Shown here: in pieces, positions 11,464-52,791 of the stretch
How the letters are laid out: every line of letters starts with the position of its first letter
Numbering within the stretch: position 1 is the stretch's first letter
NCBI GenBank assembly: GCA_902527605.1
Contig: CABZPQ010000007.1
Coordinates: forward strand, 3,757 to 67,756
Direction: 5' to 3'
DNA from: an uncultured Pelagibacteraceae bacterium
GTDB taxonomy: Bacteria; Pseudomonadota; Alphaproteobacteria; Pelagibacterales; Pelagibacteraceae
Length of the DNA: 64,000 bases
Position numbers and translations under genes: made by a program
Notes under the pieces: generated by a model
What the model was told of the DNA's origin: nothing
The model's database searches: none
What the model saw: only the letters and a program-made list of their open reading frames with translations

Positions 11464-11633
11464 TTATTAGTACATGAGTTATACAATAGTGTCAATTAGG
11501 TTGTATTTTGAGTCTGTAAGTGAATCAAAAGTGAATCAAAACGTGAACATCCAAAACTATATTTTGTGCTATTGTGGATAACTTAAACCATTAGTAGTCT
11601 AAGATCTAAATTTAATTATAAAAGGAGAAGGGT

Positions 11634-33643: not shown

Positions 33644-33680
33644 AGCTATAAATTTATATTAGTTATGTTATAAGAATTTA

Positions 33681-33820
33681 TACGGGAGAGACTACTTTTG
33701 TAGCGCCGAAGGAGCAACCACCCCGGAAACTCTCAGGCAAATGGACCGTACATATTAACTCTGGAAAGAGAATAATTCTCGCCGAAGGAGCAAATCTCTC
33801 AGGCAAAAAGACAGAGGGGG
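33681..33820 (+). ncRNA. Tandem glycine riboswitch
   Basis: Two aptamers, each GGA(G/A)AG...CGCCGAAGGAGCAA...CTCTCAGG, closed by TACGG/CCGTA and CTCTG/CAGAG, directly upstream of gcvT. Confidence 0.96.
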
Positions 33821-47414: not shown

Positions 47415-47879
47415 TTATTTTGGGTAATTCCTTTTAGCAATAAATTTGTTCAAGATTATGCCAAAAACTATCACAATAATTGATCCGCTTATAACTGGGG
47501 AAATTAAATATTCAAATGAAACTGACCCCATGATCACAATTATAGGATTTCCTCCTGCAGGAGGGTGGGTTACATTAAGAATAATCATTAATCCGACACC
47601 TATTCCAACAGCAACAGGTATAATAATATATATCGGAAGTGGAACGAAATTCACAAATATCACACCAACAAGTGAAGTTAAAAAATGACCAAAAAATATA
47701 TTTTTAGGTTTTGCAAAAGGACTTTCTGGATACCCATAAAGCAAAACCATTGTAGAACCAAAGGAAGCAATCAAAAATAATCCATAAGGTGTTTTATAAG
47801 TAAGCAATGACAAAACCCCAATTGTCATAGTAGAAAATATTGCAGCGATAGCAGGTTTTTTAATATCTAAATTATTCAT
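47415..47879 (-). CDS. HPP family membrane protein (start probably 47879)
   Basis: ASFGS, PESPFAKP, GH, THPPAG. Confidence 0.88.
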   Translation of the reverse strand: MNNLDIKKPAIAAIFSTMTIGVLSLLTYKTPYGLFLIASFGSTMVLLYGYPESPFAKPKNIFFGHFLTSLVGVIFVNFVPLPIYIIIPVAVGIGVGLMIILNVTHPPAGGNPIIVIMGSVSFEYLISPVISGSIIVIVFGIILNKFIAKRNYPK

Positions 47880-48273
47880 CAATGCTGAGTTTCTTAATTG
47901 CAATTAATGGCATTAATACACAGTTTTTTCTAGATATATTTTTTTTATTAAACAATTTATTAAATTTATTTAGATTTTTTGGCAAAGGTTTAATTTCATT
48001 TTCAAAATAATCGATAAGATTTTTTAATAAATAATTAATTTTATTTTTACTTTTTTTGATAAGTTTATGAGATATTAAGCTTGCAGAAGCTTGACAGTAA
48101 ACACAGGATTTTGTCTGATACCCAATATCTTGTATTATATTTTTCTTAATATTAACTCTCATTTCAATTATATCGCCACAAGTTTTATTTTTATATTTCG
48201 ATCTATGAGTGTAATCTTTCAATATTTTATTATTAGTCGTGTCGGATGCAATTTTTATTATATCTAAATCCAT
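47872..48273 (-). CDS. Stand-alone IscU/SufU (NifU_N)-like protein
   Basis: N.TCGD, SCVYCQASAS, RKNCV. Confidence 0.7.
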   Translation of the reverse strand: MDLDIIKIASDTTNNKILKDYTHRSKYKNKTCGDIIEMRVNIKKNIIQDIGYQTKSCVYCQASASLISHKLIKKSKNKINYLLKNLIDYFENEIKPLPKNLNKFNKLFNKKNISRKNCVLMPLIAIKKLSIDE

Positions 48274-48320: not shown

Positions 48321-49226
48321 ATGCCTGATTTAAAAAATCCTAAAGTAGCTATTCCAATTGTTTTATTTGCAGGCATACTTTGGTCATTTGGACCATATGT
48401 TGTAAGACATATAGACCAACCCGAAACTGTCCCTTGGCAATACTTGTTTGCAAGAGGCATTGTTATTTTTTTATTGCTGAATGTTTACTTATTTCTGGAA
48501 GAAGGAATTTCATTTTATAAAAATTATTTTAAAATTGGGATATCTGGAATTATAGGTGGTGTCGGTTTAGGAACAGCAATGATAACTTTTATTTGGTCAA
48601 TTACTAACACGACAGCAGCAGTAACTTTATTATGTTTAGCTGCAATGCCTTTTATAACCGCGCTACTTGGTTTTCTATTTTTGAAAGAAAAAATTTCAAT
48701 CACAGTTTGGATATCAATTTTAGTCGCTGCATTTGGTATAATAGTAATGGCCTACGGTAATACCGAAGAAAATTCTTTAATTGGTCTAATTTTTGGATTA
48801 GTATCTGCACTAGGTTTTTCAATTTTTTCAGTAAGTCTGAGATGGAGAAAACAAACTCCTAAGTTTACAACTGTTGCTATAGCAGGATTATTTTGTTTTT
48901 TATTTTCAACAGTTATGCTTTTAAATAACGATGCAAATTTCTTATCTTCAAATAAAAATGAAGCATTATTTGCCACTCATGGAACACTTGTGTGCATGGG
49001 CTTAATTCTTTATTCAATTGGGTCTAAACATATTCCTGCAGCTGATTTAACGCTATTGTCTTTGACTGAAGTAATAGGAGGAATATTTTGGGTTTGGCTG
49101 CCATGGCTTGGAATAAATGAAATTCCTTCAACTAATACAATTATTGGTGGCTTCTTTATTTTTTTAGCTATTTTTTATTATAGTATGATAATGCAATCTA
49201 ATAGAAGATTTATTGGATTAAATTAA
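48321..49226 (+). CDS. DMT/EamA family transporter
   Basis: About 10 TM; paralog of 32771..33643. Confidence 0.85.
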   Translation: MPDLKNPKVAIPIVLFAGILWSFGPYVVRHIDQPETVPWQYLFARGIVIFLLLNVYLFLEEGISFYKNYFKIGISGIIGGVGLGTAMITFIWSITNTTAAVTLLCLAAMPFITALLGFLFLKEKISITVWISILVAAFGIIVMAYGNTEENSLIGLIFGLVSALGFSIFSVSLRWRKQTPKFTTVAIAGLFCFLFSTVMLLNNDANFLSSNKNEALFATHGTLVCMGLILYSIGSKHIPAADLTLLSLTEVIGGIFWVWLPWLGINEIPSTNTIIGGFFIFLAIFYYSMIMQSNRRFIGLN

Positions 49227-49232
49227 TTTTAC

Positions 49233-50348
49233 ATGGTTCAAAATAATAAGATTGTTAATAGTTGGAATGAATGGGATCCATTAAAACATGTAATTGTTGG
49301 AAGAGCAGATGGTACTTGTATTCCAGCACCTGAACCTGCTTTAGATGCTAAAGTTCCAGAAGACTCTGATATGCGAGGAACTTATGGTCCAAGAACTAAG
49401 GACACTGTCGATAAAGCTAATGAACTATTAGATAACTTTTCAAATTTGCTTGAAAAAAGGGGAATAAAAGTTGATAGACCAACACCTTTAGATTTTAATC
49501 AACCAACATCAACTCCTGACTGGAAAGCCGAAACTATGTTTGGATGTATGCCACCTCGAGATGTTTTGTTAACTGTGGGAAATGAAATATTAGAAGCTAC
49601 AATGAGCTACAGGTGCAGATGGTTTGAGTACCTATGTTACAGACCATTATTAAAAGACTATTATAATAAAGATCCAAATATGAGACATGAGTCAGCGCCA
49701 AAACCCAGATTAACAGATGCCGATTATAGAAAAGATTATTTATCAGATAAAATTGGTGTAACTAAAAGACTTGAATGGACAGAAAATAAATACTTTGTCA
49801 CAACCGAGGAAGAGCCATTATTTGATGCCGCAGATATTTTAAGATTTGGAAAGGATTTGGTTGTACAACACGGATTTACAACTAACTTAAAAGGAATTGA
49901 TTGGATAAAAAGACATTTTAAGGATCATAGAGTTCATGCTGTAAATTTCCCAGGCGATCCTTATCCAATTCATATTGATGCAACCTTTACCCCAATTAAA
50001 GAAGGGTTAATTATTAATAATCCACAACGAAGACTTCCAAAAGAACAAAGAAAATTATTTGAAGATAATGGATGGGAAATTATTGATGCTGCACAACCCG
50101 CTCATAATACCCCACCACCACTTTGTTACTCTTCAGTATGGCTATCAATGAATGTTTTAGTTCTTGACCCTAAAACTGTATGCGTTGAAAAAAGTGAAAA
50201 ATATCAAGCTGAACAGTTAGATAAATTAGGTATGGAAGTTATTCCTGTAGAGTTGAGAGATGCATATGCTTTTGGTGGGGGCCTTCATTGTTGTACAGCC
50301 GATGTTTATAGAGAAGGTACTTTAAAAGATTATTTTCCAAAACAATAA
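49233..50348 (+). CDS. Amidinotransferase (AGAT/StrB1 family)
   Basis: VNSWNEWDPL..VIVG, PRD, FDAAD, HIDAT, GGGLHC. Confidence 0.88.
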   Translation: MVQNNKIVNSWNEWDPLKHVIVGRADGTCIPAPEPALDAKVPEDSDMRGTYGPRTKDTVDKANELLDNFSNLLEKRGIKVDRPTPLDFNQPTSTPDWKAETMFGCMPPRDVLLTVGNEILEATMSYRCRWFEYLCYRPLLKDYYNKDPNMRHESAPKPRLTDADYRKDYLSDKIGVTKRLEWTENKYFVTTEEEPLFDAADILRFGKDLVVQHGFTTNLKGIDWIKRHFKDHRVHAVNFPGDPYPIHIDATFTPIKEGLIINNPQRRLPKEQRKLFEDNGWEIIDAAQPAHNTPPPLCYSSVWLSMNVLVLDPKTVCVEKSEKYQAEQLDKLGMEVIPVELRDAYAFGGGLHCCTADVYREGTLKDYFPKQ

Positions 50349-50349
50349 A

Positions 50350-51399
50350 ATGAACGCAAAAATTAATACAAAACGCAAAAGAGTAAAATTTGCTTCAGAC
50401 AATGTGACAGGAGCTTGTCCAGAAGTTTTGGATGCAATTATCAAAGCAAATGATGGTATTGCTCCTCCGTATGGTAACGATGAAATTTCAGGTGTGTTAC
50501 AAGAAAAATTTTCTAAAATTTTCGAAAAGGATGTAATTGTTTACCCTACAGCATCAGGAACTGCATCAAATGCTTTAGCACTTTCTGCTATATCTCCATC
50601 ATTTGGAAATATTTATTGCCACAAATTTTCTCATATCAATGTTGATGAGTGTGGAGCTCCTGAATTTTATACAGGTGGAGCAAAACTTGTTCCATTAAAC
50701 GGTAAAGACGGCAAAATAACAGTTGATGAGCTAAATGATAATATTGGAGGGTTTGGAATTGTGCATCATACTCAACCATCTATTGTTAGCATAACTCAAG
50801 CAACAGAAACTGGTGAAGTTTATACTTTAGATCAAATTAGAAATATCTCTGAAATTGCATATAAAAAAAAATTAAAAGTACATATGGATGGTGCTAGATT
50901 TGCTAATGCGCTTGTTTCACTAGATGTTACTCCCGCAGAAATGACATGGAAATCAGGAATTGACATATTATCTTTTGGAGCAACGAAGAACGGATGTATA
51001 GCAGCTGAAGCAATTATTATATTTAATAAGGAATTAGTTGGCAATTTACCTTTTTTGTTAAAAAGATCCGGTCATCTATTGTCTAAAATGCGTTTTGTTT
51101 CTGCACAATTAGATGGATATATCTCAAATGATGTTTGGTTAAAAAACGCAAGACACGCAAATCTAATGGCAAAAAAATTAAGCGATGGTTTAGTTTCTAG
51201 TAATCAAGTTAAACTTGAATATCCAACTGAGGCAAATGAAGTTTTTGTTAAACTGCCAAAAAAGATGGTTGAGCATTTAAATACGGAAGAATATATGATG
51301 AGCAATGAGGAATTAGGCGGCAAGACAGTTAGACTTGTTACAGCTTGGAATACTAAAAGTAGTGAAGTAGACGAGTTTCTAAAAACTATATCTAATTAA
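50350..51399 (+). CDS. ltaE: Low-specificity L-threonine aldolase
   Basis: FASDN, YG.D, GTASN, HMDGAR, SFGATKNG PLP lysine. Confidence 0.88.
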   Translation: MNAKINTKRKRVKFASDNVTGACPEVLDAIIKANDGIAPPYGNDEISGVLQEKFSKIFEKDVIVYPTASGTASNALALSAISPSFGNIYCHKFSHINVDECGAPEFYTGGAKLVPLNGKDGKITVDELNDNIGGFGIVHHTQPSIVSITQATETGEVYTLDQIRNISEIAYKKKLKVHMDGARFANALVSLDVTPAEMTWKSGIDILSFGATKNGCIAAEAIIIFNKELVGNLPFLLKRSGHLLSKMRFVSAQLDGYISNDVWLKNARHANLMAKKLSDGLVSSNQVKLEYPTEANEVFVKLPKKMVEHLNTEEYMMSNEELGGKTVRLVTAWNTKSSEVDEFLKTISN

Positions 51400-51623
51400 C
51401 TAGGATTTTCTTTTAAAAATTTAATATAGTTGATTACTTCATCAAATTTGTCATCAGGAATATCTTTATAAGTAGAATTAAATTTGTTTTTTACACATAT
51501 TGCTACATGAGCATATGGATTTCTTCCTTTTGGATGATTTGGATGATCAGGAAGTTGACCATGTAAATAATCGCCAGCTTCCTGTATCATTTTCCACAGT
51601 TTGCTTGCGTTTTCTTTGTTCAC
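51396..51623 (-). CDS. Small hypothetical protein
   Basis: 75 aa, GTG start, LPDHPNHPKGRNPYAH. Confidence 0.65.
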   Translation of the reverse strand: MNKENASKLWKMIQEAGDYLHGQLPDHPNHPKGRNPYAHVAICVKNKFNSTYKDIPDDKFDEVINYIKFLKENPS

Positions 51624-51684
51624 AAAAATCTAATCCTTGATTTATCTCTTTATTATCGAGTTGTAGATCGAGTTTTTAATTAAA

Positions 51685-52791
51685 TTAATTTAATAAATTT
51701 TCTTTCCAAAAAGCTAAATACTCTGGCATAAAAGTTTTTCCATGGTTACCCCCTTCAGTAACACCTTTTCCAATACAATTTTCTTTTTTAAGACCCTTAA
51801 ACATTGTTTTAAAAGCTTTTCTTGGATTTTTACGTGATAACTCATTAAATTCATCCAAACTTTTTATTTTTGTATTTTTTATAATTAAATCAATGAACTC
51901 TTTATTAGGATTCCCATCATCCTCTGTGTAAAAATTAGGACACTTCCAAAAATATTGAGTTCTTTTTTCAATTTCTGGCTCATAATTTCCAGTAAATAAA
52001 TGATACCATCCCTCTCTTAAATCGATTCTAATATCAGCACCTTTAGCTTGCATTTTTTCCATTATATCTACGCATGGACCTGGCAAGGTATAATCTTCAG
52101 CTAAACCATGTACATACCAAATTTTAGTTTCTTTAACTGGAGTTGGATTTCTAAACATTCCAGTAATTCCACATTCAGCAGATCTTGGTTGAGAGGCAGC
52201 AAAATAAAGATCTTTGCTAACTAATATATCTCTCAATCTTTTTTCTGCAGCCATTATAGAAAGATTTCCTCCTCTTGAATAACCAGAGACACCTACTTTT
52301 TTAATATTTATTTTTGGATCCTTGCTGAGATACTCTAATGCCATAAACACATCTATATAAGTAGACCATATAGAAGCCTTTGATTGATCTGTATAAGTAT
52401 GTTTCGCACCTCTCGCAGAAAAATTATCTAAATACATTGTCGCTATCCCCATGTCTAACAAAGGTTTTTGTTGATCTCTCATAAACTCTAACCAATTTGC
52501 AGTAAATTCATCAGCACCACCACTACTATGAACGATTAATAATAAAGGAAAAGGACCTTCTCCCTTTGGATAAGTAATAAGAGCATCAACTATTATTGGG
52601 CTCTCTTTATACCAGCCCTCCATAATACCTTTATAATCAGAAGTTTGATATGAATTAATCTTAATTAATTCTCCATTGCCTAGTTGTTTAGATAATTTTT
52701 TTAGTGGTGTTTTTTTTGGTTTAATTGTTTCTGCGTTAAGAACTGTATTTGAGATAAAAATTAATAATGCAATAATAAAAATTTTTTTCAT
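51685..52791 (-). CDS. Exported alpha/beta hydrolase (dienelactone hydrolase-like)
   Basis: Signal peptide, HSSGG, GYSRGG serine elbow, HG..ED, YH. Confidence 0.75.
   Translation of the reverse strand: MKKIFIIALLIFISNTVLNAETIKPKKTPLKKLSKQLGNGELIKINSYQTSDYKGIMEGWYKESPIIVDALITYPKGEGPFPLLLIVHSSGGADEFTANWLEFMRDQQKPLLDMGIATMYLDNFSARGAKHTYTDQSKASIWSTYIDVFMALEYLSKDPKINIKKVGVSGYSRGGNLSIMAAEKRLRDILVSKDLYFAASQPRSAECGITGMFRNPTPVKETKIWYVHGLAEDYTLPGPCVDIMEKMQAKGADIRIDLREGWYHLFTGNYEPEIEKRTQYFWKCPNFYTEDDGNPNKEFIDLIIKNTKIKSLDEFNELSRKNPRKAFKTMFKGLKKENCIGKGVTEGGNHGKTFMPEYLAFWKENLLN

Follow-up and report, generated by a model that had tools for sequence, protein, structure and literature searches.

What might an amidinotransferase related to human AGAT be doing in a streamlined marine bacterium, encoded between a transporter gene and a threonine aldolase gene? 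We consider this question for a stretch of 64,000 nucleotides, hereafter the window, from an uncultured Pelagibacteraceae bacterium (GenBank assembly GCA_902527605.1, contig CABZPQ010000007.1, positions 3,757 to 67,756 of the forward strand), whose plus strand carries an EamA/DMT-family transporter gene (48321-49226, 301 aa), an AGAT-like amidinotransferase gene (AT, P0002; 49233-50348, 371 aa), and an ltaE gene for a low-specificity L-threonine aldolase (50350-51399, 349 aa). The open reading frame coordinates agree with what the preceding sequence-only reading had described, namely three co-oriented genes separated by gaps of 6 nt (DMT/AT) and 1 nt (AT/ltaE) and flanked by minus-strand neighbors (47872-48273 and 51396-51623). 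That reading took the three genes for one salvage pathway that would turn guanidino compounds into arginine nitrogen and glycine.

Here we propose, with a probability of about one half, that AT would be a reversible amidinotransferase interconverting creatine plus ornithine and sarcosine plus arginine. The proposal builds on which genes occur and in what order, on their conservation, on the fold and catalytic residues of AT, and on its repeated pairing or swapping with creatinase; from these we infer mechanism and physiology, and sequence alone cannot name the substrate of AT. Genomes (G), loci (L), genera (g), and families (f) bear the labels of our analysis, G000 being the window's genome (87% complete).

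A Creatinase-Deleted Form of a Pelagibacter Operon

The step from the window to creatine comes from a gene that the window does not have. At the position of the 6-nt gap between DMT and AT (49227-49232), most relatives carry a 405-aa gene encoding a creatinase (L085:6778-7995 matches 1CHM at E 5e-159). Because this gap is only 6 nt long, creatinase is gone from the window locus, and the window operon is a creatinase-deleted form of the usual Pelagibacter DMT–creatinase–AT–ltaE operon; within the 87% of the genome covered by G000, the best matches to creatinase are M24 proteins of only 21-24% identity. The occurrence of creatinase in SAR11 is itself already known (PMC3686209).

To describe this variation, we used 80 same-genus genomes with a completeness of 95% or more (of the 84 besides G000, we dropped G222 and four more), among which 79 have AT, and creatinase and ltaE are each found in 55; 44 have all three genes, 11 AT with creatinase, 11 AT with ltaE, 13 AT alone, and one none of them. 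Creatinase lies directly upstream of AT in 57/57 same-genus genomes with coordinates, ltaE directly downstream of AT in 54/55, and DMT upstream of AT in all 66 Pelagibacteraceae loci with sufficient flank (14/80 had too little). The same DMT adjoins creatinase alone in G009 and G051 and precedes a creatinase–AT pair in G016, G024, and G059 (genera g9 and g16 in both cases); it also occurs with AT and without creatinase in the window and in 24 of the 80 same-genus genomes, including G276, where AT lies elsewhere. Given these presence, absence, and adjacency counts, DMT and AT form a fixed core, and creatinase and ltaE have been lost or gained independently of each other.

The linkage noted in the window thus holds across the genus, and since the DMT–AT–ltaE arrangement recurs there, it is not a product of chance. 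The idea of one sequential three-gene pathway had to be abandoned, as its genes are lost independently: ltaE is not found in 25 of the 80 genomes, 24 of which retain AT, G276 keeps DMT–ltaE at a locus from which creatinase and the usual AT are missing, and no ltaE adjoins AT among the AT loci read outside the genus. By its sequence, the third gene appears to encode an ordinary threonine aldolase, with 1V72 as best match (E 2e-106, residues 11-346), a PF01212 match, and a conserved PLP-lysine motif, GATKNG, at 210; it scores 48 bits on NCBIfam PRK10534, below the cut-off of 312. A GntG-like aldolase was considered and rejected (70.4 bits on model NF041359, cut-off 230), which leaves the suggested beta-hydroxy-guanidino substrates without support. 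In a preprint, K01620 is reported from 120/135 Pelagibacter genomes, and its accessible part has no "amidino" hit (10.64898/2026.04.03.716430).

In two single genomes, the 3' end of AT is also present as a partial second copy ~6-7 kb away from the complete gene (the L082:491-931 region, G264-type, and L147:4338-4664, G024); these copies are either assembly artefacts or remnants.

Fold, Catalytic Residues, and Conservation of the Amidinotransferase

By its predicted fold and its catalytic triad, AT belongs to the amidinotransferase family. Among PDB entries it matches human AGAT best (E 6e-86), and its AlphaFold model (pLDDT 95.4) superposes on 4JDW, human AGAT, with a TM score of 0.91, an rmsd of 1.9 Å, and 42% identity, compared with TM 0.86-0.88 and 33-38% identity for SxtG, HsvA, and StrB1, and TM 0.56-0.63 for the hydrolases ADI, DDAH, and ArgZ. 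Pfam ADI matches only residues 306-360, at 25.8 bits, and DDAH models reach 19-24 bits against cut-offs of 300-340, so that AT is nearer to transferases than to pentein hydrolases in sequence as well as in structure.

The motifs PPRD (107-110), FDAAD (197-201), DPYPIHID (242-249), and GGGLHCC (348-354) bear out the earlier statement that AT retains the Cys-His-Asp triad and PRD: D198/H247/C353 align with human D254/H303/C407, the guanidinium aspartates D110/D249 with human D170/D305, and all five residues are invariant or nearly so in the family alignment. R266, S300, and S301 are kept too and align with human R322, S354, and S355, which we take to bind arginine/ornithine. The flap reads D242-P-Y-P-I-H247 in AT and D298-P-N-P-M-H303 in human AGAT; the contrast between DPYPIH and DPNPMH was therefore correctly given, and these positions are indeed tied to acceptor range (PMC4887976). 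CyrA, for which glycine is the sole acceptor, has the aromatic F245 at the AGAT Asn300 position (PMC4887976, PMC3684758), and Y244/I246 of AT match neither N300/M302 of AGAT nor F245/S247 of CyrA.

Within the AT clade, the active-site signature NFPGDPYPIHIDATF is present in 334 of 346 core sequences, and FG[CT]MP[PAS]RD and QHGFTTN are further signatures (all from a redundant set); the active-site motifs remain nearly invariant across gene contexts. Over 59 related loci, the median pN of AT is 0.056 and its pS 0.61, to be compared with pN values of 0.155 for ltaE and 0.181 for DMT, a sequence pattern indicative of strong purifying selection on AT. AT homologs are named "glycine amidinotransferase" at JGI and often "serine/threonine protein kinase" at NCBI; the latter label seems to be an annotation error, and pathway surveys would miss AT because of it.

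Amidinotransferase and Creatinase Trade Places outside the Genus

Counting G222, AT is found in 84/85 sampled genomes of the window's genus; it is found in 8/24 genomes of genus g4 and in 0 of 87, 35, 21, 15, and 12 genomes of five other genera of the family. A search of 401 alphaproteobacterial genomes returned 29 AT matches at any level, 8 of them (2 from Pelagibacter) at no less than 61% identity. A roseobacter-like family (f83, a label inferred from gene content and database names) encodes AT in 53/251 genomes, mostly at 76-81% identity. These roseobacter-like ATs form a separate clade with support 99 in a quick tree, which was built without named AGAT, CyrA, SxtG, or StrB1 and shows only that the clade is compact. 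Plasmid and viral searches gave no AT-clade member above 56% identity, the two loci at 56% being uninformative; an IMG/VR contig whose name marks it as a giant-virus MAG carries a 45% identical amidinotransferase (L250:4657-5802).

In genera g4, g11, g2, and g13, a first slot is followed by eutA-like, eutD-like, and potADBC genes (families below cut-off). This slot holds AT alone in seven loci (G003, G011, G021, G056, G112, G139, G144), creatinase alone in six (G078, G091, G106, G129, G154, G165), and AT–creatinase in two (G013, G149), and four more loci end too early to be scored. The PotD of one such operon is close to PDB 8JV1 (E 8e-204), presumably SAR11_1336, the broad betaine/DMSP binder of PMC11485210. 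In the roseobacter-like family, AT lies within ~1.2 kb of creatinase in 4/40 genomes with both genes (G717, G794, G795, G904; two further arrangements occur) and in 5/80 metagenome loci. In G717, the creatinase–AT pair sits between arginase/ornithine cyclodeaminase and a pot/eut module, and in 6/20 roseobacter-like loci creatinase is beside this module without AT. Creatinase is the sole partner found next to AT in both the SAR11 and the roseobacter-like clades.

Paralogs of AT occupy other operons. In G276 (L144:8452-13013), a 76% identical paralog stands directly behind BHMT-like and DMG-dehydrogenase-like genes, with gaps of 1 and 4 nt, which is the position of a sarcosine-using step. In G216 and G220, a 76-78% paralog comes after genes for a TauD-like dioxygenase, a PhnZ/TmpB-like HD oxygenase, and a choline-dehydrogenase-like GMC protein, and is followed by DMTs; in G246, the paralog slot of this operon holds a ureohydrolase closest to 3-guanidinopropionase. 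The loci concerned (L141:8642-14218, L143:5572-9686, L282:5584-11870) lie beside carnitine-catabolism genes, and we may speculate that the operon degrades a guanidino phosphonate or sulfonate. At L135:8283-16857, a 62% relative of AT heads an operon of eutA-eutB-eutC-like genes that also includes genes for a PLP enzyme, M20 and M24 hydrolases, and a proline-racemase-family protein. Finally, amidinotransferase-like genes of 29-35% identity in three Pelagibacteraceae genomes (L283:6188-7369, L284:5933-7033, L285:5858-7042), of which the G288 copy lies among sugar-nucleotide/surface-polysaccharide genes, are unrelated to the window operon.

AT or its paralog thus twice trades places with amidino-stripping enzymes, an argument for catabolism, and the partner found most constantly with AT, creatinase, makes sarcosine from creatine. 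Domain-library scans of window positions 40-60 kb revealed no secondary-metabolite cluster, as the sequence-only reading had held, and in the window and the loci read, the neighbors of AT are catabolic/housekeeping genes with no biosynthetic gene cluster among them. A catabolic or salvage role, rather than one in secondary metabolism, is supported.

A Candidate Link between Creatine and Arginine

On the creatine proposal, AT would work as AGAT does: Cys353 would take the amidino group from creatine (or arginine) to form a covalent amidino-enzyme and then pass this group to ornithine (or sarcosine). Reactions of the AGAT type lie close to equilibrium, and hydrolysis by creatinase is effectively irreversible. 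For the amidinotransferase family, reversibility has been described (PMC3684758). Imported creatine would yield sarcosine, from which sarcosine oxidase would release glycine and a C1 unit, and arginine would retain two creatine nitrogens that would otherwise be lost as urea; a route that keeps the amidino nitrogen in this way would make creatinase dispensable. LtaE would likely be a separate glycine source (threonine to glycine and acetaldehyde) on a shared transcript, not a step of the same chain, and AT may additionally accept guanidinoacetate.

Several observations lead to this proposal: creatinase is directly upstream of AT wherever it is present in the genus, AT and creatinase swap in one eut/pot slot and beside one DMT, their adjacency recurs in the separate roseobacter-like clade, and the G276 paralog follows BHMT-like and DMG-dehydrogenase-like genes. 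So does the nitrogen metabolism of these bacteria, since urease exceeds the cut-off in only 7/80 same-genus genomes and G000 has two soxB genes over cut-off plus argininosuccinate synthase. Neither SAR11 strain in PMC8437039 encodes urease, and the authors speculate that urea accumulation inhibits growth. According to PMC3160333, in whose accessible part there is no creatine/amidino hit, it is uncertain which of the two SAR11 soxB paralogs is the true sarcosine oxidase. In G000, no members of the creatininase, phosphagen kinase, urease, or ureohydrolase families turned up, absences that we do not use as evidence because this genome is 87% complete and 77/80 relatives have ureohydrolases.

The proposal also meets an isotope-tracing result, which is a further reason for it. 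When 13C5,15N1-glycine betaine was fed to North Pacific communities, 13C3,15N1-creatine appeared rather than the expected 13C2,15N1 form, and the authors concluded on an "unidentified enzyme" for sarcosine to creatine, or on a reversible creatinase (PMC9321204). In that study, the 13C3,15N1-creatine pool fraction rose from 0.0004 to 0.10 in the North (50 h) and from 0.0008 to 0.078 in the South (51 h), and unlabeled creatine remained at ~5-11 pM throughout, without growth; a labeled fraction that rises over a flat unlabeled pool is as expected from turnover or exchange. SAR11 dominated the bhmt transcripts in these experiments, and the word "amidino" is absent from the main text of that study. 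If sarcosine builds up during glycine-betaine demethylation, AT could run in reverse or exchange label from sarcosine to creatine, and a ping-pong AT accepting sarcosine would give 13C3,15N1-creatine by net synthesis or by exchange. AT is on this basis a candidate for the "unidentified enzyme".

As for the transporter, which matches PF00892 at 58.8 bits (gathering cut-off 28.2), it likely moves creatine or sarcosine. A phylum search (241 genomes) and a plasmid search found DMT homologs only 26-39% identical, none of the 7 contexts read has an adjoining creatinase, and no homolog of the window DMT lies within ~6 kb of 20 roseobacter-like creatinase genes.

A number of points weigh against creatine as the substrate. 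The conserved D110 corresponds to D170 of AGAT, which presumably binds the very guanidine N-H that is methylated in creatine, and Tyr244 resembles Phe245 of the glycine-specific CyrA. The acceptors named for characterized amidinotransferases in the literature read are primary amines, namely glycine, lysine, inosamine, polyamines, and amino ketones (PMC3684758, PMC12371840, PMC12833800). The genomes showing the slot swap are mostly 55-86% complete, and on the EutD tree, which has no starred branch, the swap needs only 2 changes and so amounts to one or two events, not fifteen; it could moreover reflect a common transporter instead of a common substrate. In the roseobacter-like family, AT is mostly solitary, and its co-occurrence with creatinase is not significant (40/53 vs 130/198, Fisher p 0.19). 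The ureohydrolase in the paralog slot of G246 points to a non-methylated guanidino acid for the paralog branch. Finally, the isotope data come from whole communities, Table S2 of the same study gives the 13C3,15N1 trend for targeted creatine in the North only, and 13C2,15N1 is listed as well for one untargeted creatine feature (PMC9321204).

Competing Interpretations

The same evidence bears on four other explanations. AT could run the AGAT reaction backward, guanidinoacetate and ornithine giving glycine and arginine, in an operon that imports guanidino acids and leaves creatine to creatinase and guanidinoacetate to AT. We judge this unlikely, although it requires no new chemistry and has in its favor that human AGAT is the closest characterized enzyme, that the Asn300 position is aromatic in glycine-specific CyrA too, that homologs carry the JGI name already mentioned, that a glycine source, ltaE, so regularly adjoins AT, and that a paralog swaps with a guanidino-acid-hydrolase-like gene. 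However, the mutual replacement of AT and creatinase in a single slot and next to a single DMT is less simply explained in this way, creatine derived from sarcosine is left unaccounted for, and 77/80 genomes already have ureohydrolases; the one copy examined, by the pot operon, has guanidinopropionase/guanidinobutyrase as its closest match. Reverse AGAT chemistry was the main idea of the sequence-only reading; because the window lineage has lost the creatinase gene, the substrates suggested there, guanidinoacetate and taurocyamine, did not include creatine, the partner to which the genomes point.

It is quite improbable, in our view, that AT works mainly in the forward direction, making creatine (or guanidinoacetate) and ornithine from arginine and sarcosine (or glycine), with the product serving as a nitrogen store or osmolyte, being exported by DMT, or being hydrolyzed by creatinase in what would be a two-step arginase. 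Many EamA proteins are exporters, labeled creatine does form from sarcosine in situ, both ureohydrolase types examined in G173 score as agmatinase, not arginase, and SAR11 has a 32 pM arginine-binding protein (PMC11485210, of which 6 supplement files contain no creatine/guanidino term). Yet AT occurs without creatinase in 24/79 genomes and in the window, so that such a cycle is not required; with urease rare, it would discard nitrogen; unlabeled creatine did not grow in the incubations; no phosphagen kinase family was found in the 87% complete G000; and a true arginase lies beside creatinase–AT in G717. Slightly more doubtful still is a different amidino donor, be it taurocyamine, 3-guanidinopropionate, 4-guanidinobutyrate, or a product of ring opening by the EutD-like hydrolase, creatinase then being a mere frequent neighbor in osmolyte-catabolism islands. 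Such a donor would suit the lineage in which AT directly precedes eutA-like/eutD-like genes, the 62% relative before eutABC, and the paralog behind TauD-like, PhnZ/TmpB-like, and choline-dehydrogenase genes, and KEGG-based studies do assign K00613 to taurocyamine, as in a bloom study where it is taken from KEGG as taurine to taurocyamine (10.1101/2024.12.10.627767). It fits poorly with creatinase as the only AT partner common to both clades, with the roseobacter-like loci in which creatinase sits at the pot/eut module without AT, so that the module is not AT-specific, and with active-site motifs that hardly vary between contexts. By far the least credible is a guanidino hydrolase, in which water would replace the acceptor amine and no transfer would occur: AT does swap slots with two different amidinohydrolases, and a transfer-dead AmtA mutant still released ornithine (PMC4887976), but the structural scores and the DDAH models given above set AT apart from such enzymes. 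The retention of R266, S300, and S301, with arginine/ornithine binding presumed for their human equivalents, also speaks for transfer.

Other Features of the Locus

Riboswitch control was considered and rejected, for no Rfam match reached gathering score in 20 AT loci (92.8 kb) and none lies near the window operon. The only Rfam matches in the window, both above gathering score, are a glycine riboswitch aptamer at 33673-33758 (+), just 5' of a gcvT-like gene, and the SAR11_0636 sRNA at 11499-11589 (+). A promoter/terminator scan gave sites not above shuffles (16 vs 22.1 and 1 vs 1.6). Metatranscriptome contigs from four studies cover all three genes and bridge the DMT–AT junction in three runs and the AT–ltaE junction in one; we do not use them as evidence, for they can neither prove a single transcript nor exclude DNA.

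Downstream of the operon, most relatives have a conserved 75-aa open reading frame (51396-51623, minus strand) with no Pfam/NCBIfam match. It is followed in the window by a gene for a DLH-family hydrolase (51685-52791, minus strand) that is present in 3/80 related loci, and in L085, at the same position, by a DNA-methyltransferase-like gene and other unrelated genes. The highly variable DNA past this open reading frame (51396-52791) looks like an insertion hotspot.

Significance

SAR11 is the most abundant bacterium of the ocean; in its main genus AT is near-core and highly conserved, and about one-fifth of the roseobacter-like family (53/251) has it too. AT belongs to a conserved, apparently unstudied catabolic operon that likely has a salvage function; of the original proposal, the salvage/catabolic role stands, with arginine nitrogen and a glycine precursor as plausible products, and the three-step framing does not. 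No study of the AT gene or operon was found in the literature searched, from which most subscription papers and bioRxiv supplements were out of reach, so that a description could exist.

Were the proposal on creatine and sarcosine true, it would bring a new enzyme activity, assign a gene to the orphan sarcosine-to-creatine flux of the North Pacific tracing, and give SAR11 a urea-free route from creatine to glycine, C1 energy, and arginine nitrogen. More tentatively, and with the balance tipping slightly against the claim as a whole, Pelagibacter and many roseobacter-like bacteria may carry an undescribed arginine:sarcosine amidinotransferase, the first family member in the searched literature to act on a secondary amine, which would connect creatine and arginine in one step without a methyltransferase, let urease-less SAR11 keep creatine nitrogen, and be the enzyme that forms creatine from sarcosine in the surface ocean. 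If AT only reverses the AGAT reaction on guanidinoacetate, this would still be an undescribed catabolic use of the family, albeit a less surprising one.

Comparison with Known Systems

With regard to vertebrate AGAT/GATM (EC 2.1.4.1; 1JDW/4JDW), AT shares the fold, the triad, and the equivalents of D170, D305, R322, S354, and S355. It differs by DPYPIH instead of DPNPMH, by QHGFTTN instead of QRSQVTN, and by insertions of one residue each near PRD and ahead of the flap. The contexts differ as well: AGAT acts in creatine synthesis, whereas AT is found beside creatinase/sarcosine-pathway genes, a catabolic setting, and no gene for its synthetic partner GAMT (guanidinoacetate methyltransferase) is adjacent in the window, no genome-wide GAMT search having been made.

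The secondary-metabolism amidinotransferases CyrA/AoaA, SxtG, AmtA, HsvA, and StrB1 share family and triad with AT (E 2e-66, 2e-62, and 1e-50 for SxtG, HsvA, and StrB1, respectively), and CyrA, like AT, has an aromatic residue at the Asn300 position, CyrA and AmtA being compared by published motifs only; unlike these enzymes, AT has no PKS/NRPS or toxin cluster around it and is near-core in a streamlined genus. The third gene of the operon is a full-length 1V72-type match when set beside LtaE (1V72, 7YVR) and is far apart from the guanitoxin aldolase GntG.

A further known system is the bacterial creatine utilization unit, as in Pseudomonas putida, in which CreA and a transporter lead to sarcosine oxidase. 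Relatives of the window's genome likewise carry creatinase and a transporter, and G000 has sarcosine oxidase subunits. The difference is that the window has no creatinase and that the constant enzyme is AT, by which the amidino nitrogen would be retained in arginine and not released as urea.

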